Of a stretch of DNA of 64,000 nt, positions 7,741 to 51,710 are shown piece by piece. Position 1 is the first letter of the stretch. Each line of letters starts with the position of its first letter. Origin of the DNA: a candidate division WS6 bacterium GW2011_GWF2_39_15 (GTDB lineage Bacteria; Patescibacteriota; Dojkabacteria; SC72); NCBI GenBank assembly GCA_000993565.1, contig LBWK01000001.1, positions 300,208 through 364,207 of the forward strand. The letters are read 5' to 3'. The notes below the pieces were generated by a model, which saw nothing but the letters and a program-made list of their open reading frames with translations, ran no database searches and was not told the DNA's origin. A program made the translations under genes and the position numbers.

Positions 7741-9729
<1,989 letters not shown>

Positions 9730-9766
9730 CCTTTATATTCTTTCCTTACAGGCTTATAATCCCAGT

Positions 9767-10753: not shown

Positions 10754-10789
10754 CAATATAATGAGATATTAATTTGAAAATATCGCACG

Positions 10790-11617: not shown

Positions 11618-11680
11618 CAAAACCGCCTTTTTAGGGTATCATGGTTAGACAGGCAACGTATAATTTAGATACTACAAGTT

Positions 11681-29907: not shown

Positions 29908-32900
29908 ATGGGACTTAACGCCGGTGGTATGCAAGAAATACATCCTGATATCCAGTCAGATAGAGAGTTAATAACCTCTGGTAAAGTTCCTCAGGGAACT
30001 GCTGAAGCTAATGACAAATTAAATACTCCAGTAGTAGATATTACAAAGACAACTGGTTATTATGGGAATGATTTAACAACCGATCCTCTCCCGCTTACTG
30101 CTGAAGCGACAGCAAAGATACTTAGAAGAGGTCCTGCACAAAATGAAGATAATGGAGAAACAGGCTTGAAAGCCGGCGAGGAAAGACCTAAAACTCAATC
30201 TGCTATTCCTGTAGCCAACGGATCAGCTTATGTCGAATCAGTTAGTCCTTCAACCCCTGCACAGCAGACACCAGACACCGAAGGACTTGATCAACTTAAT
30301 ACCCCCTTATATACGCTTACTGGAGGAGGAGAGACCACTTCGACTAATGTAACTACGCCAAATGCAACAGAAGGTAAAGCAGGTAAAAACGGTACTGATA
30401 CATCAGATGACTTAGTAGCAAAGCTAAGATCAATGTTGTCCCAGGCTGACAAAGATAAGCCTAAAGAACACACTATAGAAACACCTGTAGCCCAGGATCT
30501 CAATCAGGCAGTTACAGCTTTGGCTGCAGAAGTTGCTAAGGAACCTGAAAATAATTCAAAGAAGGAAGAGTTGAACGGCTTAAAGGAATTAAGTCAATCT
30601 GTAACGAACCTCTCACAACAGATAAACCAGGTGAAAATAGAAATCACAAATCAAGTTAATACTCAGGTTGCCCAAATTACTGCAAAGATGGAAGAATCTA
30701 AAGATAAGCTGGCAGGAACGGTAAACCACTATTATATGCAAGGGGGCTCAGTATTTCACGGGACAGTAGGAGCAGGTACACATATAGAAGTTACAAATAC
30801 GGCAAGTAATTTTAATACAGGAGCAGCAGGAATAAGCGTTAGAAATACAGCAGACCACGGAAGTACAATAAACAATGGCAATATTGTAGATGCAGGTGTT
30901 AATCTGGGTATACTAGATTTGAATGCAATGATGGAAGAAGCTGAAAATTTGGACAGGCTTGCAGACGAACCAGAAGCGCCAACTTCTCTAAGTGAGGCGG
31001 CAAGGGACACAGCCGATAAGGCGAGAGAGCTTACAGAGGATATAAAGACAAGAAAAACTGATCGAGTAACAGATCCGGCAGTTACACCTGATTCAAGTTC
31101 AACAACTCATCCACCCGTAATAAAACCTCAACCAAATGTAACACCGAACGATAATCCTCCTACACCTCCACAACCGGCAGTAGCAGTAACAGATGACAGT
31201 AGTGAGCATAAAGACACCGGAGTAACCCCAGAAGAGCAACCTACTTCCGATCCTAAGAAAGCAGCAGAGAATCTAGTAGGGCCATTGACTCCTGAAGAGT
31301 CACAGGAATTTGATAATGCGAATGAAAAGAAAGGTTTTCTCTTCAGCATAAAGAGAATGTTCAGCGGTGAAAACTGGAAGAGATGGGTACCAACAGTGAT
31401 AGGGTCGATCGCAGGTTCATTCGGGGTAAAACTGTTTGCAGGAGCAGCTCTATCAATGGGTCCAATTGGAACCGCATTACTCGGAGGTGCAATGGCTGGT
31501 TTTGCCATATATTCAGGATATAGAGCTATCAAGAACTTAAGTGAGGCAGCCAAGGCGGAAGGTAAATCTGTATGGCAGGTAATGGGCAACTTGGATTTTG
31601 TAAAAGGAGCCTTACTTGGAGGATTAATTTCTGGGGTAGGTAAAGCTTCAGCGAAGTTTATCCCTGGATTCGGTTCGCTTATGGCACTTGGACTTGAAGG
31701 AGGAACTTCGTGGCTATTTGAAAATCACCTTAACAAGAAACAGCAGGAATTAGTTAACAAATACATGGATACATACCAGGCACGCAGGTATGCAAATCTT
31801 AAGGATAAAGGATATGTCATTAGAGGTGCTGAAGGAGCACCTGCTGTAGGAATGGAATCCATACTTAAAGATATGACAAGTGCACCTTCAGAATCAGAAA
31901 AGAAGGTAGCAAAGAGAGCTGCACTTGCTTCCCTTATACATCTCTACAGCATAACTAAGGATGATGCCCATAAATTTGTTGAGTATACGATAAAGGAGAA
32001 CGGTGTCGATAAGGTGATTAAGGTTGATATTACACAAATTGCGATTGATGAAGCAGAAGGAAGTACAGAGAAATACAGAATGCTTCAACTTAAAGATACT
32101 GACAAGATTAATGTCGAGAAATTTATAGATACATTAGATACAGCCAAACTTACATCAGCGATTCAAGATGCATGGAACAAAACCGATGCAACTAAGAGGG
32201 CTGATATGGCTAAGGATCTTGTAAACCTCTTCGTTGGCTTGGAAGGCACAGAAGTAGAGAAGATTATGTCGGAAGAGAGAAAGAGCTATCTCTCATGGAT
32301 CAACTTCACAACTGGGTTACACTTTGGTATGGCGGCAGTAAATGTTGGATCCTCTCTTGCAGGAGCTTACGGAGCATTCAGAGACAATTTTGGTGTCAAT
32401 CATGATGCACAGGGAGTAAACACCTCAGATTCTCAACAAGCAACAGAAGATTATAGAAGTGCCCATCCAGAAGCCCCGCAGGCAGAAGTAGAGAGGGTAG
32501 TAAATGCTGAAGGCCACATAATTGATAAGGTAGATGTAGACGGAGGCGGCGTAGACTACTACGTCGACCAAACTACAAACCAATATGTTGTACTTTCTGG
32601 GACCGGTGCTGAAAGCGTATTTGAAATACAACACCCGGATCTTGGACAGGTAACCGCAACTGAAGTAACTACCCACGGAGATACAGGCATTGTTGCCACT
32701 TTGAGTGATAATGCAGGAAAAGTTGTTGGTGTAACATATGCCGACTCTACTGGACACATTGGAGTTTTGGATATGAACGGCGTAGGTCAGCATCTATTTG
32801 CAGGTGGAGGAGAGAGCCCAATACACGGAGTAACTCTCACTGATATACAGCCAAATGGTGATGCAACATTAGTTTTAGACAATGTAAACCATCAAGTAAA

Positions 32901-35259
32901 TCTAGGAAATCTTAACCTTGAACTTGACGGATCATCAACATCAGAGGTTCAGACACAGATTGGTGTATTGATGCCACAGAGTGGAGATTCAGTAAATAGT
33001 ATGCTTCACCATACAATTGAACAGGCTAAAACTCTGAATCCTAATTTGCAACAATATGACAATCTGGAACTTGAGAGAATGCTTTACCAGGAAGGAAGTG
33101 GTATCCATGCTAATGACGCCGCGATAAGGCAGGAGTTAGGTATCAGGGGAGCACTTGATGTATCAGAGGAATGGAGCTGGAAAGATTCACCTACAATTAT
33201 GTCCTGGCTAACGGAGCTTAACGGTGGGAATACTGTGGAACTAGGTTCACAGACAGTTACAGGCGGAACACCTGGTGTAAACACTTTCTTTGAAGGGCCG
33301 GAAGTTTCCGCATTTGACGTTGCAAATGCAGGATCTGCACCTGGAGAATCAGGTGGCTTTATCAGTGTAATGGATAGAATCGTAGAGCCATCACTTCTTG
33401 CTTTGGTAGGTGGTGTGATGGCAGGTGTATTTGCTTCACAACCTAAGAGTGGCGGTATTTCAAGGCAGAACGATGTAAATACCGCAACGGCAAAAGCCGG
33501 TGATGATAAGACAAAAGATGACAAAGGCAAGGGAGTAAGCAAAGAAACCTCAGTTGAATTAGCAGCAGGAGAAGGAGCTGTTGAAAAGAAAGTCGGAGGG
33601 CCAAAGGATGTAATCGTAAATCAGATACTTAAGAACGTTATACCTAATAAATATGTTGAGATAGCTGGAAAGAAATATATTCAGGTAGAGAGTGCACCTG
33701 GGCAATGGAAAGAAAAAGATGTTAAAGACGCCCAGCCTATATCAGCTGAAGACCTTGCAGATCTACTCTTGAATCAAACGGATAAGAATCTAAGAAGTAA
33801 AGATCTATCTGGAATACTTAATAGTGCGGCCATCAAAGGTGGGGCAACTATAAAATTAACGGAGGAAGATGGTTCTGAGACAACATATAAGAAGTCCGTA
33901 AAAGACAATGAACCAGGAAAGAGGCCTGTCAAATTAGTATCATGGATTAACACAGAGACAAAGAAGAGTAGCGATGTTCTAACTAGCGATGCACTTGCGA
34001 CCAAGATCCTTGATTTGAAGGAAAAGACAGTTACAGTATCAACGCCATCTGGAAGTCCACAAGGAGGACCAAGTGCTGAAGCTGGTGGAGACGAAACAAA
34101 GAAAGAGGGTGAGGTAGATAAGGAAAAAGCTCTGAAAGAAACTTTAAACAATATATTAGAAACTCTTCATATTGATAAAAAGCAAGTTGTTATTAATGGT
34201 GAAAAATACGAATATAACAAGGATGCCAAAATATGGATAAAGTCAGGTGCATTGTTCAACAAGAATCTAATTCAGAAAGGCTCTGATAATCTTAGTGACC
34301 AGCAAGTTGTTGAATCCTGGATTAAACTTGAGTCAAAACAGCTTGGGAAGGATTTGGAAACAACTCTTGGGAACGTCGACAGTGGGAAAAAGATAAATGT
34401 TATTGACGAAATATTTAGTAAGACACCGACCTCAGTATTGAAACAAGCAAATTACAATGGCGATGTTTATACTTATGATTCAGAAAAAGATGTATGGAAT
34501 AAGGATAAAAAGAGTAAAACGGCAAGTCCAAAGAGTATCACAGGATCTGGAATGACAACCTATATAGCGAATGGTACGGCCAACGCACTCCCAAGCAAAA
34601 AAGAAAATCTGATTTGGAAATCAGATACCAGAGCTTTTAATGACAAAGATTTGGCATTAGAAATTGCAAAACTGAGGGTAAGCACTAAGGAAGTAAAGTC
34701 TGAAACAAAATCCGCAGACAGTAATGCAGAAGGGGAAAAGAACAAGGAAGAAAAAGAGAAGAAAGAAAGTAAGGGCAGAAAACTCCTTAAGACAGCGCTT
34801 ATAGTATTAGCCGTAGCAGGAGGTATTACCTCATATGCAGTTGGTGGTTGGCAAGTAGCAGCAATTACATCAGGCATCAGCTGGTTGACGACACTTGGTC
34901 TAAATATCGGAGAAGGTTTGGCACAAAAAGGTATAAGCAAGAGACAAGCCGAAGCCGCTGAACTAGCAGAAAAGCTTAAAAACGAGAAACGAGCACTGAA
35001 GCCTGATGAAGAAAAGTCGTTGGAGGAAAGGAAGAGGAAGGACGAAAGGGCTAGAAATATTATTTATTGGCTCAAATTTGCCAGTAAAGTCACGGGTGCC
35101 CTATCAATATCATCTGGAGCTTCTGCACTGTTAGGTTTAGTGATTGATAAGTTCCAGATTAACATAAAAGGAATAATCGGAGGTGCTTTCAATAGACCAG
35201 AGATAAACCAAGTTCCTTTTGAACAAACAATAGACGAATCACTTAACTTAGGAAAGTAA
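29908..35259 (+). CDS. giant (1783 aa) membrane-anchored protein with low-complexity regions, Gly-rich TM segments and a 55-aa module shared with the 35741..37288 product
   Basis: Continuous ORF. TM-like segments at about aa 490-540, 560-600 and 1640-1720. Shared module at aa 275-330 (YYMQGGSVFHGTVGAGTHIEVTNTASNFNTGAAGISVRNTADHGSTINNGNI). Degenerate G-x-Y-x-Y...W-x-K repeats at about aa 1200-1500. Confidence 0.6.
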   Translation: MGLNAGGMQEIHPDIQSDRELITSGKVPQGTAEANDKLNTPVVDITKTTGYYGNDLTTDPLPLTAEATAKILRRGPAQNEDNGETGLKAGEERPKTQSAIPVANGSAYVESVSPSTPAQQTPDTEGLDQLNTPLYTLTGGGETTSTNVTTPNATEGKAGKNGTDTSDDLVAKLRSMLSQADKDKPKEHTIETPVAQDLNQAVTALAAEVAKEPENNSKKEELNGLKELSQSVTNLSQQINQVKIEITNQVNTQVAQITAKMEESKDKLAGTVNHYYMQGGSVFHGTVGAGTHIEVTNTASNFNTGAAGISVRNTADHGSTINNGNIVDAGVNLGILDLNAMMEEAENLDRLADEPEAPTSLSEAARDTADKARELTEDIKTRKTDRVTDPAVTPDSSSTTHPPVIKPQPNVTPNDNPPTPPQPAVAVTDDSSEHKDTGVTPEEQPTSDPKKAAENLVGPLTPEESQEFDNANEKKGFLFSIKRMFSGENWKRWVPTVIGSIAGSFGVKLFAGAALSMGPIGTALLGGAMAGFAIYSGYRAIKNLSEAAKAEGKSVWQVMGNLDFVKGALLGGLISGVGKASAKFIPGFGSLMALGLEGGTSWLFENHLNKKQQELVNKYMDTYQARRYANLKDKGYVIRGAEGAPAVGMESILKDMTSAPSESEKKVAKRAALASLIHLYSITKDDAHKFVEYTIKENGVDKVIKVDITQIAIDEAEGSTEKYRMLQLKDTDKINVEKFIDTLDTAKLTSAIQDAWNKTDATKRADMAKDLVNLFVGLEGTEVEKIMSEERKSYLSWINFTTGLHFGMAAVNVGSSLAGAYGAFRDNFGVNHDAQGVNTSDSQQATEDYRSAHPEAPQAEVERVVNAEGHIIDKVDVDGGGVDYYVDQTTNQYVVLSGTGAESVFEIQHPDLGQVTATEVTTHGDTGIVATLSDNAGKVVGVTYADSTGHIGVLDMNGVGQHLFAGGGESPIHGVTLTDIQPNGDATLVLDNVNHQVNLGNLNLELDGSSTSEVQTQIGVLMPQSGDSVNSMLHHTIEQAKTLNPNLQQYDNLELERMLYQEGSGIHANDAAIRQELGIRGALDVSEEWSWKDSPTIMSWLTELNGGNTVELGSQTVTGGTPGVNTFFEGPEVSAFDVANAGSAPGESGGFISVMDRIVEPSLLALVGGVMAGVFASQPKSGGISRQNDVNTATAKAGDDKTKDDKGKGVSKETSVELAAGEGAVEKKVGGPKDVIVNQILKNVIPNKYVEIAGKKYIQVESAPGQWKEKDVKDAQPISAEDLADLLLNQTDKNLRSKDLSGILNSAAIKGGATIKLTEEDGSETTYKKSVKDNEPGKRPVKLVSWINTETKKSSDVLTSDALATKILDLKEKTVTVSTPSGSPQGGPSAEAGGDETKKEGEVDKEKALKETLNNILETLHIDKKQVVINGEKYEYNKDAKIWIKSGALFNKNLIQKGSDNLSDQQVVESWIKLESKQLGKDLETTLGNVDSGKKINVIDEIFSKTPTSVLKQANYNGDVYTYDSEKDVWNKDKKSKTASPKSITGSGMTTYIANGTANALPSKKENLIWKSDTRAFNDKDLALEIAKLRVSTKEVKSETKSADSNAEGEKNKEEKEKKESKGRKLLKTALIVLAVAGGITSYAVGGWQVAAITSGISWLTTLGLNIGEGLAQKGISKRQAEAAELAEKLKNEKRALKPDEEKSLEERKRKDERARNIIYWLKFASKVTGALSISSGASALLGLVIDKFQINIKGIIGGAFNRPEINQVPFEQTIDESLNLGK
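30730..30887 (+). repeat. copy A of a ~158-bp inverted repeat (in-frame, inside the giant gene)
   Basis: About 90% nucleotide identity to the reverse complement of 37091-37246. Confidence 0.8.
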
Positions 35260-35285: not shown

Positions 35286-35729
35286 ATGGTAGAGGAAATT
35301 GCAAAACTAATAGATCAGTTAAAAACTTACGGCCTTGATAATGCAAAACTATCAGCTCTATACCAGTTGGCAGTAGAAGATTTTCTTGAGGAGGTTCAAA
35401 CAGACCTAACAGAAATCTCCGATAGTGACCTAACCGACATAGAGTCATCACTTAAAGACATAACCATTGATAGCTTAGCAGAAGGTAATAATGATCCTTT
35501 CATGACGACTTTACGAAAACTATATGGAGCTCAAGCAGAACCGAGATTCTTGAAATTCCTTAAGGAATACTTTGAAGATGCTGTTAAGCAAGCCCAATCA
35601 GCAAAAGAGCTACTAGAGAAATATAAAGCTAATGATCCTGAAGTTCTAAAGAAGTTAGAGGAAGCAAAAATGAACGAGGATTATGATACGATGGAGGCTA
35701 TTATCAAGAGCCTTAATCCTGGAGAATAG
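35286..35729 (+). CDS. small acidic helical protein following the giant protein gene
   Basis: ORF; pI acidic; no family recognised. Confidence 0.4.
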   Translation: MVEEIAKLIDQLKTYGLDNAKLSALYQLAVEDFLEEVQTDLTEISDSDLTDIESSLKDITIDSLAEGNNDPFMTTLRKLYGAQAEPRFLKFLKEYFEDAVKQAQSAKELLEKYKANDPEVLKKLEEAKMNEDYDTMEAIIKSLNPGE

Positions 35730-35740
35730 TCTTAAAAGAG

Positions 35741-37288
35741 TTATTCTCTAACCCTTACAAACTCACTTTGTGATACAAAATGTATCCCGGTATCTGCTTG
35801 AAACACCTTTCTTCCTTCTTCAAACCACTTACCTTCAGGTGGATTGATCGAAGTCAGAATACCCAAGTATACAAAAGCTAAAAGCTGACATCCTGCCGGA
35901 GATTTATCAAACTTCTGCAACTTTGTATTTACTTTTGCTTTCTGTAATTCATTAAGTTCATCAGTTTCAAGAGGGGAGAGAAGATTGAATGAGCCTTTTT
36001 CTTCAATCATTATTCTAAATACTGAATTGAACTGCATATTCATATTACTAGCCAACCAATGTATTTTTTCTGAAGGTGTAAAATCGTCCCTCCAACCATC
36101 TGGGATTCTATCTTTTCGGATACCACCTTCCATTGGATCCACATAGTGAATTACATATCCTCCAAAGGCTTCATCTTTCACAGGAGTACTCAATATCGCA
36201 CGCGCATGTCCGCCAATATGACGATCCTGGGAAGAATAGTAGATACCAACCGGAATTCCCCATCTGTCTCCAAGCTTTGCCATATCAGTTACATTTATCT
36301 CAGTCTCTCTATTGGCATAGCTATCTAGACGGGGAACATCATCCTGTGCTCTTGGCCAGACATCATGATCAGGAAGTTCATCCGTTGTAATGTGGAATTC
36401 GGCTGGCCTACCAGGTTCCCTTGTTTCATGAACGTTTAGGTCATCGATATAAGGAGGTACAAAACCATGCAAAAGGTACTCTCTAACATCGGAACCTTTC
36501 TGGGACAAGATTTTCCTGAACATATCTTCAAGATAATTCGCAACGGTCAGGTTCCTATTTACCCAATGCTGAACCAGTGAGGCATCCATAATGGGTTCCT
36601 CAAGTAGAACAGCTGGAACCTCAACCATTAACCGGCTATGATCTTCCTGCTCTCGGATTATTAGGATAAATAAAGGGTTTTCTTTAGTATCAGAATCCAG
36701 TTCATCTTCTTTTGTCACAACAATATCAACGACGTCTTCATCCTCTTTTGTTTCAATATCAGGGTAAATACTAACCATGTCTTCAAGGTTTTCACCTAAG
36801 GCTTCAGTGAGTTGCATTTGATTTTTTACAATTTGTATTTGGTCATCAATGCTATCTATTTCCTCGCTTATGTCTAAATCTCCGTGATCTGTACTCGTAT
36901 GTGGAGCTGTTTCTTCTCCTTTTGGTCGCAGCGGCTCATCAGATTTTGAAGGAATTGTGGATACCGGAGTTGCACTGTCTACTTTCTGAGGTTCTGGGGT
37001 TGAGGTCTTCTTTTCTGTATCATCAAAGGTAGCAGCTTCTTCCATTGTAGTATCCTGTGTCAAAGTTTTCAGACTAGTCTTTGTGACGGCAATATTGCCA
37101 TTGTTTATTGTGCTTCCATGGTCTGCTGTATTTCTAACGCCTATTCCGACTGCTCCTGTATTGAAATTACTTGCCATATTTGTAACTTCTATATGGGAAT
37201 CTGATCCTACTGTTCCGTGAAATACTGAGCCCCCATGCATATAATATTCATTTGAAGATTCAACACTTTTCTTCCTTTGACCATTCAT
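35741..37288 (-). CDS. 515-aa protein with the shared N-terminal module (aa 15-70) and an unrelated C-terminal body
   Basis: N-terminal YYMHGGSVFHGTVGSDSHIEVTNMASNFNTGAVGIGVRNTADHGSTINNGNI, followed by an acidic linker and a ~300-aa C-terminal domain. Confidence 0.5.
   Translation of the reverse strand: MNGQRKKSVESSNEYYMHGGSVFHGTVGSDSHIEVTNMASNFNTGAVGIGVRNTADHGSTINNGNIAVTKTSLKTLTQDTTMEEAATFDDTEKKTSTPEPQKVDSATPVSTIPSKSDEPLRPKGEETAPHTSTDHGDLDISEEIDSIDDQIQIVKNQMQLTEALGENLEDMVSIYPDIETKEDEDVVDIVVTKEDELDSDTKENPLFILIIREQEDHSRLMVEVPAVLLEEPIMDASLVQHWVNRNLTVANYLEDMFRKILSQKGSDVREYLLHGFVPPYIDDLNVHETREPGRPAEFHITTDELPDHDVWPRAQDDVPRLDSYANRETEINVTDMAKLGDRWGIPVGIYYSSQDRHIGGHARAILSTPVKDEAFGGYVIHYVDPMEGGIRKDRIPDGWRDDFTPSEKIHWLASNMNMQFNSVFRIMIEEKGSFNLLSPLETDELNELQKAKVNTKLQKFDKSPAGCQLLAFVYLGILTSINPPEGKWFEEGRKVFQADTGIHFVSQSEFVRVRE
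37091..37246 (-). repeat. copy B of the ~158-bp inverted repeat (in-frame, 5' end of the 515-aa gene)
   Basis: Reverse complement aligns to 30730-30887 with ~13 mismatches across ~156-158 nt. Confidence 0.8.
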
Positions 37289-37333: not shown

Positions 37334-38644
37334 TTATTTCAGCGGATGCTTCTCCTTATGCGTCTCCTGTGCATACTTATCTGATGCATGCACATATCTT
37401 GTTGTTGTATTGAGACTTTCATGACCAAGCAATACCTGTATAGCAGCAGGACTCGCACCATTTTCAGCCAAATATGTTGCAAAACCATGCCTTAAACTAT
37501 GTGCAGAAGTAGGGACTAAAATGCCTAATCTACGCCTATAATTAGCAATACACTCCTGAAAATAGTTTGTAGATAATCGCGCATTTACATGTTTAGCCCT
37601 AGTCCCGCGAAGCGGAGTAAACAGGGCAGGGGAGTCAAACTTATCCAAGTATCTTGATTTCCTATATTCCTCAATGGTTTTCACATACCTCCACCTATCG
37701 TTTGCATCACTTATGAGATCAACAATATCCTTATTATCCTCAGATGTTTCACGATCAAGTATAAAAGCATGTCTCAGCCTTATCTCTAAATATCTATCCA
37801 ACCAATCCATTGCCCGGTCAGTCATATAAACGAACCTCTCTTTCTTTCCTTTACCCTTTATAAACAGCTTCCCGTCAAGGTTTATCTGATCCAGATTGAG
37901 ATTAATAAGCTCCGAGATACGCATACCAGTTGAAAAAAGCAACTCCATCATTGCACGATTACGCACTCCGACATCATGATCGTGCTCAAACTCAACCGGT
38001 GACTCAATCAGTCTAACTAAATCTTCCAACTCAGCCACCTGTGATTTCTTCTTGTCCGCCTTAATTAATTTAATTGCATCAGGAGGAATTGGAACCTCCA
38101 AATCTCTATCAATTCTGAATTTCAAATAACTTCTGATTGCACTCAACATACGATTGACGCTTCGGGCATCCAAACCGGTATCAGATCGACTGGAGACATT
38201 GGCAGGCTTACCGTGTACCCCAAGACTTCCGAACACCTTGCGATATACATCCTCGAGAAATTTTCCTTTAAACTCGGTACTTTCCGTCTCACTCACAGGT
38301 CTCAATACAGTACCCTCAGGCACTTCGACGGTTCTAGACCCCTTGTAGCCCTTTGAGGTATCTTCCTGTGCTGTATCAACCTTTCTTAAGTATTTCTCCC
38401 TTATTTTATCCAAATCCTTCAAATGATCACCATTTCTAAGGTAGCCCTTGTACAAAGTCACCTGTTCTTTATTCAACTTCTCAAAGGAATACGAATTAGC
38501 ATCAAGAAACACTGCAAAAATTGAAAGATCCCGTGCGTAATTAAGTACTGTCTGCATACTATAATTGTTATTCTGAAGCTCTAAAAGAAAGGAGTCCTGA
38601 TCAGGAAGCTTCGGAATTACTGTGTTCATATTTTTAGAAGACAT
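37334..38644 (-). CDS. tyrosine site-specific recombinase (XerC/XerD-like integrase family) with a ~100-aa insertion
   Basis: C-terminal catalytic region AHSLRHGFATYLAENGASPAAIQVLLGHESLNTTTRYVHA (H-x-x-R ... Y) and an N-terminal core-binding-like helix NYARDLSIFAVFL; 436 aa against ~300 for canonical Xer. Confidence 0.8.
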   Translation of the reverse strand: MSSKNMNTVIPKLPDQDSFLLELQNNNYSMQTVLNYARDLSIFAVFLDANSYSFEKLNKEQVTLYKGYLRNGDHLKDLDKIREKYLRKVDTAQEDTSKGYKGSRTVEVPEGTVLRPVSETESTEFKGKFLEDVYRKVFGSLGVHGKPANVSSRSDTGLDARSVNRMLSAIRSYLKFRIDRDLEVPIPPDAIKLIKADKKKSQVAELEDLVRLIESPVEFEHDHDVGVRNRAMMELLFSTGMRISELINLNLDQINLDGKLFIKGKGKKERFVYMTDRAMDWLDRYLEIRLRHAFILDRETSEDNKDIVDLISDANDRWRYVKTIEEYRKSRYLDKFDSPALFTPLRGTRAKHVNARLSTNYFQECIANYRRRLGILVPTSAHSLRHGFATYLAENGASPAAIQVLLGHESLNTTTRYVHASDKYAQETHKEKHPLK

Positions 38645-39082
38645 GGGAGTAGGGGGGTGAAATTTTAGTATTTAGGATAGTAGGGATATAGGAGGTATTA
38701 ATAACATAATTTACTATCTTTCTATCCAGATCTTCATACATAATAAATAATAGCATCTATTGTGAATATATAAAAATAGCTTAAATAGAGCACTTCTCTG
38801 TTCTCCTCTATGCTCTACCGCATATAAGAGCGATTATACTCGGTAGTATATTACCTGATATATACTACTCTGTAAAGGGAAGACCCATCATATTAAAGGT
38901 GTGCACACATTCATATAAATAAATATTAAGACCCTTTATTAATAAGTACTAATAATAAAGATTATTCATTGATAGAAGGAGGTACTACACTGTAAAGATA
39001 TCCACAGATTTACTATAAGATATTAATCACTATGGGATAGCTAGCACTCCCCCTCCCCTTTGCTTATCGTAACATGGAAAAA

Positions 39083-39898
39083 TTAAGAATAATAAATTCC
39101 CAAAATAAACGTAAGGACTAATAGAAACACGTATTGGATCAGATCAAAGTTCCTAACCATATTACGCTGTTTCTTGGTTATGTACTCTAGAGAGATGAAC
39201 CCCCCTACTGTTGGCCCCAAAGCTATAACCTCGTGCCTTTGTGAAACAATCGCCAGTGCTATCACAGAGGTAGAAAGGAAAAGTAACGTTAGAGCGGTAT
39301 ATCCCCCTATCCTCTCCCAGCTTATGTCCATATGCCTTAAGTGGAAAAAGATAAGACCCGTGTAAGTAAGCAACAGAATAGCCATGGTAATAAAGATATT
39401 AAAATTGGCATCCATTATCCCAACAGTTATAAAGAAGGTGCATATAAGAGTTCCAATAAATGAAACCGTTCTTGCCGCCTGAACGAGGGGAATTTCTTTC
39501 TTGATTGTTGAAACGTTAAATATATTAGCCATCAAAAATGACATATATATACCGCCAAACAGAATTGCCAAGATACCAATGAGAATAAGAACTTCATAAA
39601 CCCTACCCACCCTTCTGAAGAAGAAGAGCTCAAGAAAGATCATTTCTGCAAAAATAAAAAGACTCGTCTGCGGAACAATGTATAGAAGAGTGTGTAGCGT
39701 AACCTGGAACCTAAGTGCCCATATTAATCCAATATATGAAAAGATAAAGTACCCTACTCCTCTCAAAATAATCGTGACAGGATTAACAATAACAGATTGC
39801 TGTGTGATTTTAAAAAATAATATGGAGAGTGAGATAACTAATGCAAGAGTCAAGATTCTACCTTTTTTTACATTGTCTATGTTTCCCTGTATTTCCAT
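39083..39898 (-). CDS. polytopic membrane protein, unknown function
   Basis: About 8 hydrophobic helices. Confidence 0.4.
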   Translation of the reverse strand: MEIQGNIDNVKKGRILTLALVISLSILFFKITQQSVIVNPVTIILRGVGYFIFSYIGLIWALRFQVTLHTLLYIVPQTSLFIFAEMIFLELFFFRRVGRVYEVLILIGILAILFGGIYMSFLMANIFNVSTIKKEIPLVQAARTVSFIGTLICTFFITVGIMDANFNIFITMAILLLTYTGLIFFHLRHMDISWERIGGYTALTLLFLSTSVIALAIVSQRHEVIALGPTVGGFISLEYITKKQRNMVRNFDLIQYVFLLVLTFILGIYYS

Positions 39899-39901
39899 GT
39901 T

Positions 39902-40960
39902 TTATATTATAGACGTTAATCCTAGAATCTCAATTGCATGACGCATACCCTTCTCAGTCAATACCCGCCCGCGCGATGTTCTTTGTAACAACCCGCATTT
40001 CATTAAAAACGGCTCGTAAACAGACTCAACAGTATTAAGATCTTCAGATACAGCCGCTGCTAATGTGGAAAGTCCGACTGGACCACCGCCATAGTTATTA
40101 TAAATGGATGCAAGTATCTTTCTATCTATTTCTTCCAGACCCAGATCATCTATACCAAGCAATTCTAGGCCTCTTATAGCCGTTTCTCTGTCAATGAAAG
40201 ACTTAAGTATTTCAGATTCGGCAAAATCCCGAACTCTTTTCAACAGCCTCAAGGCAACTCTCGCTGTACCTCTAGACCTTTTTGCCACCTCTGTTAATGC
40301 ATCACTGTCATATGCAATATCCCAAAGCACTGCAGCACGTTTAAGAATTAGGACCAGGTCTTCTTCACCGAAGTAATCAAGTCTTTGAATCAATCCGAAC
40401 CTGTCTCTCATGGGTGAACTGATCTTTCCAATCTGTGTTGTCGCTCCAATTAGTGTAAAGGGCTCCAGTGTTAAGCGGATTGTTTTAGCCGATGGGCCCT
40501 TACCCATCACAATATCAATAGCCCTGTCTTCCATGGCGGGATAAAGAATCTCTTCAACAACCCTTGGTATTCGATGTATCTCATCTATAAACAAGATATC
40601 GTTGGCTTTAAGATTTGTAAGTATAGCAGCCAAATCCCCCTGCCTTTCAATAGCCGGACCAGAGGTTATTCTCAAAGAGGAGTTGATCTCATTAGCAAGG
40701 GCAATAGCAAAAGTCGTCTTGCCAAGCCCCGGAGGTCCGTAAAAAAGGATATGATCAAGGACCTCTCCCCTCCTCTTGGTTGAACTTATCATCATTCTAA
40801 GTTTCTTCTTCTCAGAATCTCTTCCAACAATTTCATCAATTGTTGACGGTCTGATTGACTGCTCTATTACAGTGGCGACACCACTTGATTCTATTGGTTT
40901 GACCCTCTTCTTTTTACTTATCCCGCTCTTCACCGAAGAGATATGGCTTGATTCTATCAC
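39902..40960 (-). CDS. ruvB: Holliday junction branch migration ATPase RuvB
   Basis: Walker A GPPGLGKTT, Walker B ILFIDEIHR and the C-terminal winged-helix LQRTSRGRVLT. Confidence 0.9.
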   Translation of the reverse strand: MIESSHISSVKSGISKKKRVKPIESSGVATVIEQSIRPSTIDEIVGRDSEKKKLRMMISSTKRRGEVLDHILFYGPPGLGKTTFAIALANEINSSLRITSGPAIERQGDLAAILTNLKANDILFIDEIHRIPRVVEEILYPAMEDRAIDIVMGKGPSAKTIRLTLEPFTLIGATTQIGKISSPMRDRFGLIQRLDYFGEEDLVLILKRAAVLWDIAYDSDALTEVAKRSRGTARVALRLLKRVRDFAESEILKSFIDRETAIRGLELLGIDDLGLEEIDRKILASIYNNYGGGPVGLSTLAAAVSEDLNTVESVYEPFLMKCGLLQRTSRGRVLTEKGMRHAIEILGLTSII

Positions 40961-41556
40961 TCAGACTTTAATACCAATTTAAGAACTTCCTCAATTGAAT
41001 ACTCTTTTCCTTCCATAAGTTTCTGAGCACTTCGCAAGTATTCCTTTAATGGCTCCCCGCTAAAACCTAAGGATCGAAGAGCATTATTCAAATCATGCAT
41101 CACTTCATCTTTCTGTCCTGAAGTGACTTCACCTGCGATTATTCCCATATCGTCAATCTTATTTTTAAGCTCTATTACAATCTTCTGAGCACTTTTCTGA
41201 CCAAGGCCAGGGACTTTGCTCAGTGTTTTGAAATCTTCAGAAAGCAAAACCATATATAGCTGGGAAGGGGTGAACACGGACAGAATTGATATTCCGCTCT
41301 TCGGCCCGATACCGGAAACTGAGATTAACATCTCAAAAAGATCTCTTTCTTCTAACGTTTTGAAACCATAAAGGGTTTGACTGTCTTCACGCACCACCAT
41401 CAGAGTGTGAAATATTGCCTCTTGACCTACAACAAACCGAAGAAGCTTGGAAGTAACAACCCTGTAACCTATTCCATTACCCAAAAGTACATCCACTTCT
41501 TGATATCTATCTTCTGATTTAATGTGCAGAATCTTGCCTTGTAAATACGAAATCAT
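40957..41556 (-). CDS. ruvA: Holliday junction DNA-binding protein RuvA
   Basis: Position between ruvC and ruvB (4-nt overlap); SGIGPKSGISIL and PGLGQKSAQKIVIEL helix-hairpin-helix motifs. Confidence 0.8.
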   Translation of the reverse strand: MISYLQGKILHIKSEDRYQEVDVLLGNGIGYRVVTSKLLRFVVGQEAIFHTLMVVREDSQTLYGFKTLEERDLFEMLISVSGIGPKSGISILSVFTPSQLYMVLLSEDFKTLSKVPGLGQKSAQKIVIELKNKIDDMGIIAGEVTSGQKDEVMHDLNNALRSLGFSGEPLKEYLRSAQKLMEGKEYSIEEVLKLVLKSE

Positions 41557-41573
41557 ATAGTTAAGTATAAAGG

Positions 41574-42062
41574 TTATTTCCCTAATATTCTATCCATTTT
41601 CGCGGAATAATGACAGCATACTGCAGCGGCGATTGCATCTGCTGCATCATCTGGTTTAGGTATGGTTTCGAGGTTTAGCAGCAGTTTAACATTTTCCTGA
41701 ACCTGCCTTTTATCCGCCCTACCGTTTCCCGTTATAGCACGCTTAATTTGGGGGGGTGTATATTGATGTATAGGTAACCCATTCTGCTCAAGGACAAGCA
41801 TACATACCCCTCTCGCCTCACCTACTGCCATAGCGGTTTTTACGTTATTACTGAACAAAAGGATTTCTACAGATGCTAATTCAGGTTTAAACTTTTTGAT
41901 AATATTATGAAGGTCTTCATATATCTCCCCTAACCTCATGCTATTGCGCAAGCCTGCTTTGGTTGATATAACGCCGTAATCGATAGCTTTAAGGTCAGTA
42001 TCTGCATCAATAATAGCCCATCCGGTTGTAGCAAGTCCGGGATCAATACCTAAAATAAGCAT
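41574..42062 (-). CDS. ruvC: crossover junction endodeoxyribonuclease RuvC
   Basis: MLILGIDPGLATTGWAII; 162 aa; synteny. Confidence 0.85.
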   Translation of the reverse strand: MLILGIDPGLATTGWAIIDADTDLKAIDYGVISTKAGLRNSMRLGEIYEDLHNIIKKFKPELASVEILLFSNNVKTAMAVGEARGVCMLVLEQNGLPIHQYTPPQIKRAITGNGRADKRQVQENVKLLLNLETIPKPDDAADAIAAAVCCHYSAKMDRILGK

Positions 42063-42090
42063 ATAAATGAATAAAAGATTAGATCACCCT

Positions 42091-42864
42091 TTACTCCTGA
42101 TCTAGGTCTGTCCAAATTTCTTGAACATCGTCATAATCCTCAAGAGTTTCAATAGCTCCATTTAACTTTTCCAACTCGGCTTCCCCTATCTTCTTGGTCA
42201 TCTTAGGAACTTTAACTAGCTGAGCTTTGAGTACAACGTATCCCATTTTAAGAATTGCATCTCTAACTTTAGCAAGATTCTTGAACTCACAGTATATATC
42301 AAGAGTACGATCTTCGCTTATATCAATATCCTCAATGCCCTCAACATCCATAAACAGCATCATTACCTCTTCAATATTCTCTTCTACGAAATAATCGGGC
42401 TCTCCGAACTTTTCTGATTTAACCATCTTTCCAGGTTTTACGTTTATATACCCTTTAGTATCAAAGTTCCAAGAGACTGAACCGGCTTCTCCGAGATTTC
42501 CTCCGAAGTCCTCAAACATATTTCTCAGTTCTGATACAACTCTATTGGTATTATCAGTAAGAACATCAACAATAATGGCAATTCCTCCCGGGCCGAAACC
42601 CTCGTAGGAGGCCTCTGTGAGCTGGACACCGTCACTGCTGCCAGCACCTTTATCTATTGCTTTTTGTATATTATCCGTTGGGAAACCTTCTTCTTTAGCC
42701 TGTGCCACAAGAAGACGTAAAGAGGGATTCATATTAATATCTCCCCCGCCCTGCCTTGCGGCATGAGTTATAAGCTGAGACAGTTTAGAGAATACTTTCC
42801 CTTTCTTAGCATCGTTTATTGCCTTCTTGTGTTTAATTGTAGACCATTTACTGTGACCTGACAT
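42091..42864 (-). CDS. YebC/PmpR-family DNA-binding transcriptional regulator
   Basis: MSGHSKWSTIKHKKA is the family N-terminus; the likely start is the internal Met rather than the ORF-track start at 42915. Confidence 0.85.
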   Translation of the reverse strand: MSGHSKWSTIKHKKAINDAKKGKVFSKLSQLITHAARQGGGDINMNPSLRLLVAQAKEEGFPTDNIQKAIDKGAGSSDGVQLTEASYEGFGPGGIAIIVDVLTDNTNRVVSELRNMFEDFGGNLGEAGSVSWNFDTKGYINVKPGKMVKSEKFGEPDYFVEENIEEVMMLFMDVEGIEDIDISEDRTLDIYCEFKNLAKVRDAILKMGYVVLKAQLVKVPKMTKKIGEAELEKLNGAIETLEDYDDVQEIWTDLDQE

Positions 42865-43058
42865 CAATAGTATTGTAACACAAGAACATAAAAACTGATA
42901 AGCCTTAGAATACAAACCTCTTATAGTTACCTACGCAGGTCTAATATTTAAATAAAATTTCCAAATGGTTACAAATAGCTCAAACTTATATTTTTCCTAT
43001 CTTCTTTCTCTGCTGTTTTCCTCTAAAATATAGATATCTAACTTAATCGCCAACAATA

Positions 43059-43581: not shown

Positions 43582-46104
43582 CTACTCTTGATCCATATTA
43601 TTCTGAGCCGGAATCACTACAGGTGAACCTATTTCCCCTGCTTTTACAACACTTGGCATCTCCACGTTTGAAGATACTGTCTCTGTTCTTTTTCCATTAT
43701 TTACATTCATTAATGCCCTATTCCCTTTATCACTATACTTCTGTTCACTCCATCTTCTAATCTTGTCTTCTATAACTTCCTGGTCTGCACTATACCTCTC
43801 TCTAGAGTTTTGTATAATCTTCTCTTTATTCCCAAATTTCTCATATCTAAGATCTAGAGATTTGGCGCTGAAAGGTTTTGAAGTCATCCCATCAATACAA
43901 AGCTTCACATAAAGAGAGTGGGATTCAAGAGAGACAAGGTCCTCTGCAGAAAATATTGGAGCAAACTCATTAGAGAGAATCGATGCATCTCCCTGGCTAA
44001 CTACAAATGAAGCCAGTGTTCCCACATTACCAAAAATAGCCTGCCTTACAGTTAAAGGTATCTGATCTATATACTGGTTGGTCATGGTGAGATTAAGTTT
44101 GAACTTTCTGGCTTCTGAAAGAATTTTTGCAAAAGAATCTGTTGCAAAGTTCTGAAACTCATCAACATAGAGATAGAAGTCTCTTCTTTGTGCCATAGGG
44201 ATATCAACTCTCTCCATTGCCGTAGATTGGAGCCTTGTAATTAACATCCCGCCAAGCAGAGCCGAACTTTCCTCTCCGATCTTGCCTTGAGCCAAGTTAA
44301 CTAACAATATTTTGCCCTCATCCATAACATTTCTCAAATTAAAGGAGGACTTCACCTGCCCGACTATATTTCTAATTACAGCAGAAGATATAAACCGGCC
44401 AACCTTGTTCTGAATAGGTGCAACTGCCTCCGAAACCAGCTTAGAGTTCTGCGACATCTGTGCAAACTCCTCCTCCCAGAACTTATATAAGATGGGATCT
44501 TTCACCTGTTTAAGAATAAACTTGCGGTAGTTTCGATCATTAAGAAGCCGCATAACCGAGAGAATTGTTGTTCCCTGAGCTTCAAGAGCAGTTGAAATGG
44601 TGTTAGTAAGGATGTATTGAAGACGTGGCCCCCAAGACTCAAACTGCTTTTTGAAAACTTCCACAACACCATCCGCAACCAGATCCCGCTGTGACGAGTC
44701 ATTCATCTCCAAAAGGTTGAAAGCAATTGGGTGCTTCACGTCTGCAGGGTCAAAATATATGACATCGTTCACTCTTTCAGGGGGAATGAAATCGAGAAGC
44801 TCATCAACCGTCTCACCGTGAGGGTCTATAAAACACGCTCCGTTACCGGCAATCACATCTGAAATGAACATATTCTTGAATACCGTTGATTTACCTACCC
44901 CCGTTTTACCCAATAAATAGACGTGGCGTCTTCTATCGTCCTTCTTAACTCCAAAGGATATTTTCTGCCCCCGATAGTCAGTCTCAGCAAAGGCATTAAC
45001 GTCAGGCTCCCCGGCAAGAGGCAGATCCATTGGAGGTTCAGCTTTCCTTGCCCTGCTCCACAAAATATTCGGCGTCTCCACAGAAATATTTGGCAGATGA
45101 AAAACAGAGGCAAGTTCTTCAATATTCAGAATATCTTCAGGTGTAGAAACCAATTTTCTCTTCAGGAAATCGCCGTATATTGATTGGGCACTCTGGTTAG
45201 GTGCCGAATGGACAAAGCTATTCAGGTGAGCAGTTGTAAACTGCTTGAAACTAGCAACAAGATCTCTAAGTATCTGCTCAGATCTTGGCTGATCGGGAGA
45301 TTTTGTAACAACCCTAATACTCACTTCAAACCCAAGTTTAAGCATTTTGGTTTCAATCTGAGTGAGCTCTTCCTGCTGGCCTGGCGCCAGCTTTACAACC
45401 TCTTTACCTCCACCTTTCTCTGTAGATGTCTGAAGGGATTTCGAGATATCCTTAACCATCTTCATAAGGAGTTCCCCAATACTGTTAATAGAGCTCTTCC
45501 CCTCCTTAATCTCCGTAATATATTTCTTTGAAGCCTCCTGCCAATAATTAGCTATTGGTCTCATGTTGAACTGCACCCAAGCTTCCTCTCCAAGCTTTAG
45601 GCCTGAAATGGCACTTGTAATAGCGGCCAGAGGATCAACTTCAAAGTTCCGAAATGTTTTAATCGGGAATATATAACTCTTATCAAGTTCTACAATTCCG
45701 GTACTCACAAAAACCTGTGATTCTCCACGAGTCGCAGTGTAGTCCTGAACATGCTTAATTTCAGCATTTGGATACTGTGCATAGATCTGTCCCTGAACAA
45801 ACTCGGCAAGATGCGCAGGGATAACGGCATAGAAACGTATCCCATTTTCACCTGAAGACACTATTTCAAACGAAATTAGATCCAACGACTTCTTGGAATC
45901 TCTTAGAATTCCATGCAATGATGCAAACATCTGTTCCGCTGCTAGAGGCGTTTTATCATTCTCTCTAGGCACAAGAATTTGTAAAACCTGAGGATTTCTC
46001 ACCTCTTCAAACACAACAACACTCTTAGGCTTCTGTGCAAAGGTGAAAACAAACAGCACAAAAAATACTGATAGAATGAGTAATATTAGTATTGTCCCTG
46101 TCAT
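43582..46104 (-). CDS. membrane-anchored VirB4/TraC/HerA-like (DUF87/AAA_10-type) P-loop ATPase
   Basis: N-terminal TM helix; Walker A YLLGKTGVGKST followed by CFIDPHGE (the D-P-x-G-E motif typical of HerA/VirB4/TraG ATPases); Walker B YLYVDEFQNF; 840 aa. Confidence 0.6.
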   Translation of the reverse strand: MTGTILILLILSVFFVLFVFTFAQKPKSVVVFEEVRNPQVLQILVPRENDKTPLAAEQMFASLHGILRDSKKSLDLISFEIVSSGENGIRFYAVIPAHLAEFVQGQIYAQYPNAEIKHVQDYTATRGESQVFVSTGIVELDKSYIFPIKTFRNFEVDPLAAITSAISGLKLGEEAWVQFNMRPIANYWQEASKKYITEIKEGKSSINSIGELLMKMVKDISKSLQTSTEKGGGKEVVKLAPGQQEELTQIETKMLKLGFEVSIRVVTKSPDQPRSEQILRDLVASFKQFTTAHLNSFVHSAPNQSAQSIYGDFLKRKLVSTPEDILNIEELASVFHLPNISVETPNILWSRARKAEPPMDLPLAGEPDVNAFAETDYRGQKISFGVKKDDRRRHVYLLGKTGVGKSTVFKNMFISDVIAGNGACFIDPHGETVDELLDFIPPERVNDVIYFDPADVKHPIAFNLLEMNDSSQRDLVADGVVEVFKKQFESWGPRLQYILTNTISTALEAQGTTILSVMRLLNDRNYRKFILKQVKDPILYKFWEEEFAQMSQNSKLVSEAVAPIQNKVGRFISSAVIRNIVGQVKSSFNLRNVMDEGKILLVNLAQGKIGEESSALLGGMLITRLQSTAMERVDIPMAQRRDFYLYVDEFQNFATDSFAKILSEARKFKLNLTMTNQYIDQIPLTVRQAIFGNVGTLASFVVSQGDASILSNEFAPIFSAEDLVSLESHSLYVKLCIDGMTSKPFSAKSLDLRYEKFGNKEKIIQNSRERYSADQEVIEDKIRRWSEQKYSDKGNRALMNVNNGKRTETVSSNVEMPSVVKAGEIGSPVVIPAQNNMDQE

Positions 46105-50375: not shown

Positions 50376-51710
50376 CTATTTGTCCTTCTTTTCACCCCTA
50401 TCTTTATATAGGTTTTTGAAACTGGCTATATTTTTAACAAATGCCAATTCTACATCACCCGTTGGTCCGTTTCTATGCTTCGCAACTATAACGTCTGCAA
50501 TCCCTTTCTTCTCCGAGTCCGGATTATACGTCTCTTCTCTGTCTATAAAGATGACAAGGTCAGCGTCTTGTTCTATACTTCCGCTTTCACGAAGGTCTGA
50601 TAGCTGCGGCCTTCTTGAGGTACGTGACTCAACTGCACGAGAAAGCTGCGACAAGGCTATAACAGGAACATCCAACTCACGAGCCATATTTTTAAGCCCC
50701 TGTGAAATCTCCCCAACTTCCTGAGTTCTTCCCTCTCTGCTGCTTCCGTGTACTAACTGCAAGTAGTCAACAATGATAATATCTATACCTCTTTCAAGAG
50801 CGACACGTCTTGCCTTCGTTCTTAGCTCATTTATGTGCTGGCCTGGAGTATCATCAATAAGTATCTGGGTTTCAGCAAGTTCACCCATTGCAATTGCTAA
50901 CCTTTCAAACATCTCATCATTTAGCTTCCCTGTTCTGGTATCCCAGAACGATACTTCCGCCTGCATACCCAGTAGCCTATCAAGTATCTGTGTATTGGAC
51001 ATTTCGAGAGAGAATATCAGGACTTTTTTCTTTTGGGTCACCCCTGCGTTCCGAGCCATATCCAAAGCAAAAGCAGTTTTACCTACAGATGGTCTTGCTG
51101 CAAGTATAATCAAATCAGATTTCTGAAATCCTCCTATTACATTATCCATATCACGAAATCCTGAGGAAATTCCAAGATATGTCTCTTCTCGCTCCGCCCT
51201 TTCGGCTCTCTCATAAGCATCTTTAAGAAGATCCTTGATATGAACAAAGTTCGTCTTAACACCTGTTTGAGCAACATCAAACAGAAGTTTCTCTGATTGA
51301 TCAACGACATCCTTCAGAGGCATACTCTCATCAAAACTAAGTTCGGTAATTTCAGAGGCAGAAGATATTAGCCCTCTTCGAACAGCATTTTCTTTGACAA
51401 TTTCTCCATACTCTTCGGCATGCGCGGAGGTTGGAACCAAATTAGCAAGATCTGTAAGGTATGCACGTCCTCCTATCTTAGATAACTGTTTTTTTCCTTT
51501 AAGCTTATTTGAAAGAGTCACAATATCTATTGGTTCCCCCTCTTCAAAAAGCTCTAGGATATTACTATATATAATTGAGTGCCTTTCCTCATAAAAGTGC
51601 TCTGCAAGAAGCCAGCCCGCTACATTTATAACCGCTTCCTTATCAAGAAGCATCGCACCTAAAACCGACTGCTCGGCTTCTGCATTTTGCGGTGGTAGTT
51701 TATATGCCAT
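50376..51710 (-). CDS. dnaB: replicative DNA helicase DnaB
   Basis: Walker A ARPSVGKTAFAL, H2 IIVDYLQL and the N-terminal SVLGAMLLD. Confidence 0.9.
   Translation of the reverse strand: MAYKLPPQNAEAEQSVLGAMLLDKEAVINVAGWLLAEHFYEERHSIIYSNILELFEEGEPIDIVTLSNKLKGKKQLSKIGGRAYLTDLANLVPTSAHAEEYGEIVKENAVRRGLISSASEITELSFDESMPLKDVVDQSEKLLFDVAQTGVKTNFVHIKDLLKDAYERAERAEREETYLGISSGFRDMDNVIGGFQKSDLIILAARPSVGKTAFALDMARNAGVTQKKKVLIFSLEMSNTQILDRLLGMQAEVSFWDTRTGKLNDEMFERLAIAMGELAETQILIDDTPGQHINELRTKARRVALERGIDIIIVDYLQLVHGSSREGRTQEVGEISQGLKNMARELDVPVIALSQLSRAVESRTSRRPQLSDLRESGSIEQDADLVIFIDREETYNPDSEKKGIADVIVAKHRNGPTGDVELAFVKNIASFKNLYKDRGEKKDK

Follow-up and report, generated by a model that had tools for sequence, protein, structure and literature searches.

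We analyzed a 64,000-nucleotide (nt) stretch of DNA from the candidate division WS6 bacterium GW2011_GWF2_39_15 (contig LBWK01000001.1, positions 300,208 to 364,207; hereafter the window), centering on xer, an open reading frame (ORF) on the minus strand (37334–38644) for a 436-amino acid (aa) Xer-type tyrosine recombinase. The ORF likely encodes the chromosome-dimer-resolution recombinase of Dojkabacteria (WS6; Candidate Phyla Radiation (CPR)/Patescibacteria), with its recombination site immediately upstream of the gene. A sequence-only reading of this DNA had offered two roles for the protein, a chromosomal Xer or an invertase dedicated to a neighboring inverted repeat. The first is well supported by core-gene synteny, an adjacent dif-like site, and a switch in the orientation of polar motifs at that site; the second is not supported.

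A candidate dif site and converging polar motifs

An alignment of the window with two relatives, over the intergenic region upstream of xer, first brought to light a conserved near-palindrome. Located 172 bp upstream of the xer ATG (38817–38844, minus strand), this 28-bp candidate dif reads ACCGAGTATAA-TCGCTC-TTATATGCGGT, that is, two 11-bp near-palindromic arms (9 of 11 positions matching) around an asymmetric 6-bp center. An ATAA-N6-TTAT core is typical of dif, as in E. coli dif, and the candidate shares with dif sites both the ATAA...TTAT core and the 11-6-11 geometry. Because its arms are near-identical, and fully identical in some lineages, the site fits one protein on both arms. Archaeal dif has been described as 11-6-11 (PMC2958812), and XerS/difSL and XerH/difH, which use a single recombinase, are characterized by a recombinase gene linked to its dif (PMC5357621).

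The site is conserved, linked to xer, and nearly unique. It occurs once in the window, where no copy is expected by chance, and a position-weight matrix built from 96 distinct sites returned one match above 5 bits in the 64 kb, the candidate itself (46.9 bits). About 120 related loci carry a dif-like site on the same strand, almost always adjoining xer. Among 80 loci from species-representative GTDB genomes, about 40 carry one copy of the site each (≤9 mismatches), on the same strand, ~200 to 260 bp upstream of xer; these are essentially the long-form clade described below plus some short-form relatives. A search of 241 million metagenome records yielded 88 stretches with one copy of the site each. 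The xer gene lies downstream on the same strand in 78 of the 81 stretches that extend at least 450 bp beyond the site, and in 71 of those 78 it is found at a distance of 100 to 500 bp, mostly ~200 to 230 bp. Across ~1.2 Mb of loci, there is one copy of the site per locus. In three loci (L084, L125, and L134) xer starts ~650 bp after the site rather than ~210 bp, with an 89-aa ORF between them in L084; the extra sequence may represent small insertions next to dif. Perfectly palindromic sites (ACCGAGTATAA-N6-TTATACTCGGT) occur in other lineages in the metagenome and GTDB sets (L097, L160, L151, L102, and L067). In L102, L151, and L160, the palindrome stands without xer within the sequence available (three or four such contigs in all), so this type of site may be wider in the CPR than its linkage to xer.

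To find polar sequences without bias as to motif, we scanned 113 non-redundant loci (1.18 Mb), oriented on the site, and counted the copies of every 7-mer pointing toward or away from it. The most skewed were GTAGGGG (318 toward, 14 away), GAGTAGG (330:15), AGTAGGG (421:21), and GGCAGGG (128:6). The ratio of top- to bottom-strand copies of AGTAGGG is 283:4 upstream of the site and 15:130 downstream, the flip falling at the site. Finer binning gave 150 top-strand and 0 bottom-strand copies at −500 to −300 bp, and 0 and 77, respectively, at +100 to +200 bp; the latter signal comes from a conserved block, GCCCCCTACTCC, directly before the xer ATG. Counted in the window alone, plus- versus minus-strand copies of GTAGGGG stand at 9:0 left of the site and at 0:2 right of it. 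The scan motif GAGTAGGG falls within the GAGNAGGG family of B. subtilis SpoIIIE recognition sequences (SRS) and resembles the E. coli FtsK-orienting polar sequence (KOPS), GGGNAGGG (PMC3384302). Both SRS and KOPS converge on dif, and ~90% of them lie on the leading strand near dif (PMC3384302; PMC5357621).

At this locus, a tandem G-rich polar motif, GGGGAGGGGGAGT (GAGTAGGGGAGTAGGG in most relatives), is located on the minus strand at 39046–39058, ~200 bp from dif on its ruvB side, and points toward dif. The opposed motif GGAGTAGGGGGG (38646–38657, plus strand) abuts the xer ATG on its 5′ side, antisense to xer and also directed toward dif. Another copy with this orientation, GGGCAGGG (37624–37631, plus strand), is antisense to xer codons Ser338-Pro339-Ala340. 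This invariant Ser-Pro-Ala is encoded TCC-CCT-GC[CT] in 71 of 72 loci; TCC makes up 3.6% of the Ser codons in the same genes, and TCC-CCT-GCC would be expected at ~0.2%. Through this codon choice, GCAGGGGA is therefore kept on the antisense strand of xer. On these codon counts, synonymous sites within xer are under DNA-level constraint that preserves an antisense KOPS-type motif. The polarity is independent of the coding strand: more than 2.5 kb from the site, motif copies in ORFs that run away from it still point toward it (23:5). Because the copies within xer are antisense to xer, the switch in polarity falls at the site and not at the point of gene convergence. Since the orientation flips at the site irrespective of the coding strand, it bears the signature of a chromosomal dif site.

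In the mechanism that we propose, the 28-bp site (38817–38844) would be occupied by two Xer monomers, one on each of its near-identical 11-bp arms. On a chromosome dimer, two such sites would be brought together at the division septum, where Xer would exchange strands across the 6-bp center and so restore monomers. An FtsK/SpoIIIE-type translocase would be guided to the site by GAGTAGGG-type motifs pointing in from both sides. The candidate dif would thus be where binding, cleavage, and dimer resolution take place; a single recombinase presumably acts there, FtsK is probably involved, and the two insertions found in the protein may have a role. Within a literature that we covered incompletely, we found no paper on dif, KOPS, or Xer function in Patescibacteria or Dojkabacteria, and no description of chromosome dimer resolution for the CPR. 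The locus offers a testable Xer/dif pair for a whole CPR class, comprising the 28-bp site, the gene for the recombinase, and GAGTAGGG as a guide motif of the type that FtsK and SpoIIIE recognize. Because the site and the motif would mark a replichore junction, they could also be used to orient Dojkabacteria metagenome assemblies and to check their closure.

Several points weigh against this interpretation. The compared loci are phylogenetically related, so the counts at three conserved motif positions are not independent. GC skew in the window mostly tracks the coding strand and is therefore weak independent evidence of a terminus. The evidence on site copy number, the number of Xer proteins, and the position of the terminus all comes from the 64-kb window and the locus stretches. 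The xer loci of short-form Dojkabacteria (~350 aa), including that of the complete genome AP024679.1 (L058), have no adjoining site. Finally, the left arm of the candidate dif contains a perfect TATAAT, so that the palindrome might also serve as promoter or operator.

The last of these points can be taken further: the palindrome might simply be the xer promoter or operator, for example an autoregulatory or repressor site over a TATAAT −10 box, with the real dif elsewhere. Palindromes are typical of operators, and this one lies upstream of xer in the sense orientation. However, no −35 element is conserved, the positions 5′ of the arm being variable, and similar palindromes occur in a few contigs that have no downstream xer. 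An operator would also leave unexplained the switch in KOPS/SRS-type motifs, which includes copies conserved on either side (about −300 to −500 bp and +100 to +200 bp) that face each other, and the 11-6-11 geometry and ATAA/TTAT core match dif sites. We therefore consider an operator in place of dif unlikely.

The recombinase and its two insertions

The ATG-to-stop ORF of xer carries two Pfam domains. Phage_integrase (PF00589) spans residues 223 to 422 (E 2.3e-33; 115.9 bits against a gathering threshold of 27.1), and the core-binding, SAM-like Phage_int_SAM_1 (PF02899) spans residues 18 to 70 and a second stretch (37.5 bits; threshold 22.3). Alignment to E. coli XerD (PDB 1a0p) identified the catalytic residues R242, K268, H382, R385, H408, and Y417, all six of which are invariant among 16 homologues in one alignment and 64 in another; we take their counterparts in XerD to be R148, K172, H244, R247, H270, and Y279. 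The ORF, the Pfam domains, and the XerD-aligned catalytic residues bear out the earlier description of a 436-aa Xer-like tyrosine recombinase, and the two boxes on which it drew, HSLRHGFATY and LLGHESLNTTTRYVH, are both present. Judged by sequence, the protein is an Xer-type member of the tyrosine recombinase superfamily with a complete set of active-site residues. The nearest solved structures by sequence and fold are XerD, XerA, IntI4, and XerH, with XerA structures heading the Foldseek list.

None of the named Xer families claims the protein. The top NCBIfam models were XerC (TIGR02224, 177.1 bits against a cut-off of 335.15) and XerD (TIGR02225, 176.4 against 329.6); the insertions break the match into two stretches, which leaves both scores far short of the equivalog cut-offs. 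Nor were the cut-offs reached for XerA (NF040815, 140.8 against 220 bits), XerS (NF003462, 91.7 against 267), the integron integrase (TIGR02249, 71.8 against 265), or two models of tyrosine-type DNA invertases, the group of FimB/FimE and shufflon Rci (34 and 26.3 bits against 222 and 221). Since the XerC, XerD, XerA, and XerS thresholds all failed, we file the protein as a separate, CPR-specific Xer-type lineage.

Alignments to XerD and to normal-size CPR Xers showed that the extra length consists of two insertions. The first (residues ~70–150, ~80 aa) lies within the core-binding domain, between the YKGYL helix and the RSVNRMLSAIRSYL helix; in normal-size CPR Xers, YKAYL runs almost straight into the SVNRxLSSLR helix. 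The second (residues ~290–334, ~45 aa) lies within the catalytic domain, past the beta-hairpin and the helix that follows it. A single insertion of ~100 aa between the two domains, as first described, is thereby refuted, each insertion being inside a domain. An AlphaFold2 model (mean predicted local distance difference test score 71) renders the insertions as conserved helices (73–87, 124–138, and 319–335) that flank disordered loops (88–123 and 298–313); the loops are modeled with low confidence and vary in sequence among homologues. Outside the insertions, identity to normal-size CPR Xers is 55 to 59%.

The long form is widespread in its lineage. From 5.8 billion protein clusters we retrieved more than 100 homologues of full length (415–585 aa, 53–77% identity), those with names being Candidatus Dojkabacteria. 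Because so many homologues share it, the long form is a lineage feature and not the oddity of a single gene. Other CPR Xers are ~307 to 312 aa and have neither insertion, a second Dojkabacteria group has ~350 aa and a short first insertion, and the clade to which the window belongs has both insertions and 420 to 585 aa, with a few members whose second insertion exceeds 150 aa. In this series, the insertions grew stepwise within the lineage, from ~307 to ~350 to 420–585 aa, at two fixed points. Such stepwise lengthening provides a natural experiment on how a tyrosine recombinase tolerates or uses extra modules. In the longest proteins (P0063, P0101, P0102, and P0064; 538–585 aa), the second insertion exceeds 150 aa and again falls at that one point of the catalytic domain, which appears to be a permissive hot spot for expansion.

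We compared the module with characterized Xer systems. XerS of Streptococcus and Lactococcus is a single enlarged Xer (356 aa versus 298 for XerC/D) linked to difSL (PMC5357621), and the system depends on FtsK and lineage-specific polar guide motifs (PMC5357621; PMC3384302). Here too an enlarged Xer is linked to its candidate dif, 172 bp upstream at the polar-motif switch. However, the protein scores 92 bits against a cut-off of 267 for XerS, it is longer (436 aa, and up to 585 in its family) with its two insertions at other positions, its 28-bp 11-6-11 site differs from difSL (31 bp with an 11-bp center), and its motif is G-rich and of the SRS/KOPS type, unlike GAAGAAG of XerS. XerH is a single recombinase of 354 to 362 aa with difH near its gene and near-palindromic arms that bind the same protein (PMC5357621). 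As in XerH/difH of Helicobacter and Campylobacter, the site is near the gene, and XerH is among the best structural matches, whereas sequence similarity is low (E 4e-10 over a short stretch) and the arms and center of the site are unrelated in sequence.

The E. coli XerC/XerD-dif-FtsK-KOPS and B. subtilis RipX/CodV-dif-SpoIIIE/SftA-SRS systems provide the best sequence matches, the 28-bp 11-6-11 site, the ATAA...TTAT core, and an octamer motif converging on dif, the B. subtilis GAGNAGGG family accommodating GAGTAGGG. In contrast to XerC/XerD, the present protein scores far under the cut-offs, carries two large insertions, and is encoded next to its site, whose near-identical arms suggest one protein rather than a pair. 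Archaeal XerA is a single recombinase acting on an 11-6-11 near-perfect palindrome with conserved flanks (PMC2958812); it is unlinked to dif, independent of FtsK, and associated with 4-mer polar sequences (PMC2958812; PMC5357621). The near-palindromic 11-6-11 layout and the top Foldseek matches resemble XerA, whereas the adjoining gene and the score (141 bits against 220) do not. By analogy, the module would work like XerS/difSL and XerH/difH, with a site architecture and guide motif of the XerCD/FtsK-SpoIIIE kind.

Gene neighborhood and the upstream array

Upstream of xer on the same strand lies a conserved block (39083–42915, minus strand), delineated from ORFs and from Pfam labels on identical and related contigs. 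In order of transcription it comprises yebC (42091–42915), ruvC (41574–42062), ruvA (40957–41556), ruvB (39902–40960), and a 271-aa membrane protein (39083–39898). The order yebC-ruvC-ruvA-ruvB-(~270-aa membrane protein)-~450-bp intergenic region-xer, all on one strand, recurs in two close relatives (76–77% identity). More broadly, ruvB is upstream of xer in 70 of the 79 loci with enough upstream sequence, and CPR loci from outside Dojkabacteria also retain yebC ~2 kb upstream of xer. Relatives number 570 in species-representative genomes, the best 80 of them all coming from different genomes; in the 64-kb window, tblastn detected no second integrase. It is well supported that xer is a vertically conserved, syntenic core gene of Dojkabacteria.

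On the 3′ side of xer, gene content is variable and gene orientation reverses within 0 to 3 kb; in the window and most relatives, the orientations converge 1.5 to 3 kb past xer. At three short-form loci (L053, L058, and L063), gene orientation and skew also switch at xer but diverge instead of converging, an arrangement that differs from that of the long-form clade. The variable DNA raises the possibility that xer is the integrase of a mobile element or genomic island, with the palindrome as an att site at one edge and the variable giant and ORFan genes as cargo. An integrase beside att at the edge of variable DNA is the classic layout, and the DNA downstream of xer is entirely different between close relatives. 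Yet the gene and the site occupy the same position after ruvB in those 70 of 79 loci across the whole class, and the protein tracks the normal CPR Xers (55–59% identity). In none of the loci does the site recur over the next 10 kb downstream, a search of 2.9 million viral contigs returned no copy of it, and the polar-motif switch at the site is a chromosome-scale feature. An island integrase is thus very unlikely.

An alignment of 83 loci revealed further conserved elements in the intergenic region. In the window, an array at 38998–39036 (minus strand) contains CCYRTAGT with a 17-bp period (CCCATAGT at 39036–39029 and CTTATAGT at 39019–39012) followed by TGTGGATA(T/A), a sequence similar to a DnaA box. 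The array is present in the L002–L170 loci too, ~125 to 260 bp upstream of the site, as two or three copies of CCYRTAGT, TGTGGATAA, and TGCTAAT, in that order. The element TGTGGATAA is the DnaA-box consensus, TTATCCACA, in reverse complement; in the window, the copy departs from it at one position. We considered a replication origin here because of this DnaA-box-like element and the iteron-like repeats, and rejected it: gene orientation converges and the ruvB-side genes run toward the intergenic region, DnaA boxes do not cluster in the window (22 near-matches, with 19.9 expected), CCYRTAGT is not enriched in the window, and the window contains neither dnaA nor dnaN. A non-coding RNA upstream of xer was likewise rejected, as no Rfam family exceeded its gathering threshold (a snoRNA match was at chance level, E 4.4); RNAalifold found essentially no conserved RNA fold on either strand among 65 diverse sequences.

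The conserved CCYRTAGT array with TGTGGATAA, and the two insertions, leave room for something more unusual. It is possible, if doubtful, that Dojkabacteria possess a distinct Xer family with a compact, hard-wired dif activation zone, made up of the enlarged recombinase and the ~450-bp intergenic cassette, in which the insertions would contact accessory elements or a non-canonical translocase. The cassette would comprise the opposed SRS/KOPS-type motifs, the 17-bp-period CCYRTAGT array, the DnaA-box-like TGTGGATAA, and the 28-bp dif. A candidate for the translocase would be an 840-aa VirD4/CedD-like ATPase that is syntenic with ruvABC-xer. Were this so, recombination would be controlled in a way that XerCD, XerS, XerH, and XerA do not show.

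The 840-aa P-loop ATPase (43582–46104, minus strand) has weak matches to TrwB/VirD4, HerA, TraD, and CedD, and a precomputed Pfam assignment to DUF8128. In most Dojkabacteria loci, this VirD4/TraD/CedD-like protein is syntenic with yebC-ruvCAB-xer, and it often precedes the block. Having neither an FtsK_SpoIIIE nor a gamma domain, it was rejected as an FtsK, and any connection with DNA translocation at dif is speculative. The genes gyrB and gyrA (7807–14461, plus strand) and dnaB (50376–51710, minus strand) are located within 15 to 30 kb of the presumed terminus and are transcribed toward it. In many Firmicutes, gyrB, gyrA, and dnaB lie close to the origin.

The inverted repeat downstream of xer

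The inverted repeat reported earlier beside xer, reading into a 515-aa gene, is real, but it measures 164 nt per arm rather than 158. The right arm (37090–37253) starts 81 bp after the xer stop codon and encodes residues 12 to 66 of a 515-aa ORFan (35741–37288, minus strand) directly downstream of xer. The left arm (30723–30886) lies in a 1783-aa ORF (29908–35259, plus strand) and encodes residues ~272 to 326. The arms have sharp borders and are 90% identical, with 16 mismatches at scattered positions, which alter 5 codons synonymously and 8 non-synonymously. Perfect identity extends over 22 nt at most, which together with the scatter of the differences indicates that the arms have not been homogenized.

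If the recombinase inverted the 6.2-kb segment between the arms, the 1783-aa and 515-aa proteins would exchange their C-terminal parts, giving phase or antigenic variation as in shufflon, Fim, or Mpi systems. Several features are in keeping with this: 81 bp separate xer from the right arm, xer and the 515-aa ORF share a strand, the borders of the arms are sharp, and Xer-like recombinases have been proposed for inversions in some reduced genomes (Ureaplasma, PMC3599477). The arms also share codon phase, and a rare homologous crossover would therefore give in-frame chimeras; nothing ties such an event to the recombinase. FimB/FimE and Rci belong to the same superfamily, use the same catalytic chemistry, and in those systems as here an inverted repeat stands beside the gene.

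The remaining evidence is contrary to inversion. The recombinase is found class-wide, whereas the repeat, its 54-aa segment, and the 515-aa gene occur only in the genome of the window. No inverted repeat flanks xer in close relatives that encode the same recombinase, and the 54-aa segment is present in none of ~170 related loci. The position-weight matrix detected no dif-like site in or near either arm, its sole match in the 64 kb being the site upstream of xer. Across 18 to 21 kb, three assemblies derived from two sequencing runs match at 100% identity and in orientation, and seven contigs hold an intact 515-aa protein. Among the 5.8 billion clusters, the 515-aa protein matched only itself, with no homologue and no chimera joining its C-terminal part to another N terminus. 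The 16 differences are spread along the 164 nt with no homogenized core, and the protein scores 34 and 26 bits against cut-offs of 222 and 221 for tyrosine-type invertases. In contrast to FimB/FimE and Rci systems, the repeat here is not conserved with the gene, has no recognizable recombinase site, and shows no sign of inversion. These results make a dedicated invertase very unlikely, and we judge that the repeat arms are not a substrate of the recombinase and that the 515-aa ORF is not part of the Xer system. A false lead is thereby removed, the repeat being a private feature of one genome and not a conserved switch.

In several relatives, a homologue of the window's 147-aa gene (35286–35729) stands directly after xer in convergent orientation, which marks the 515-aa ORF as an insertion found in this genome alone. 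On the simplest reading, the repeat is a local inverted duplication that supplied the N terminus of a new gene between xer and the 147-aa gene. The 515-aa and 1783-aa proteins share only the 54-aa segment, and neither has a Pfam domain; partial homologues of the 1783-aa protein are encoded at two of the related loci (L009 and L010).

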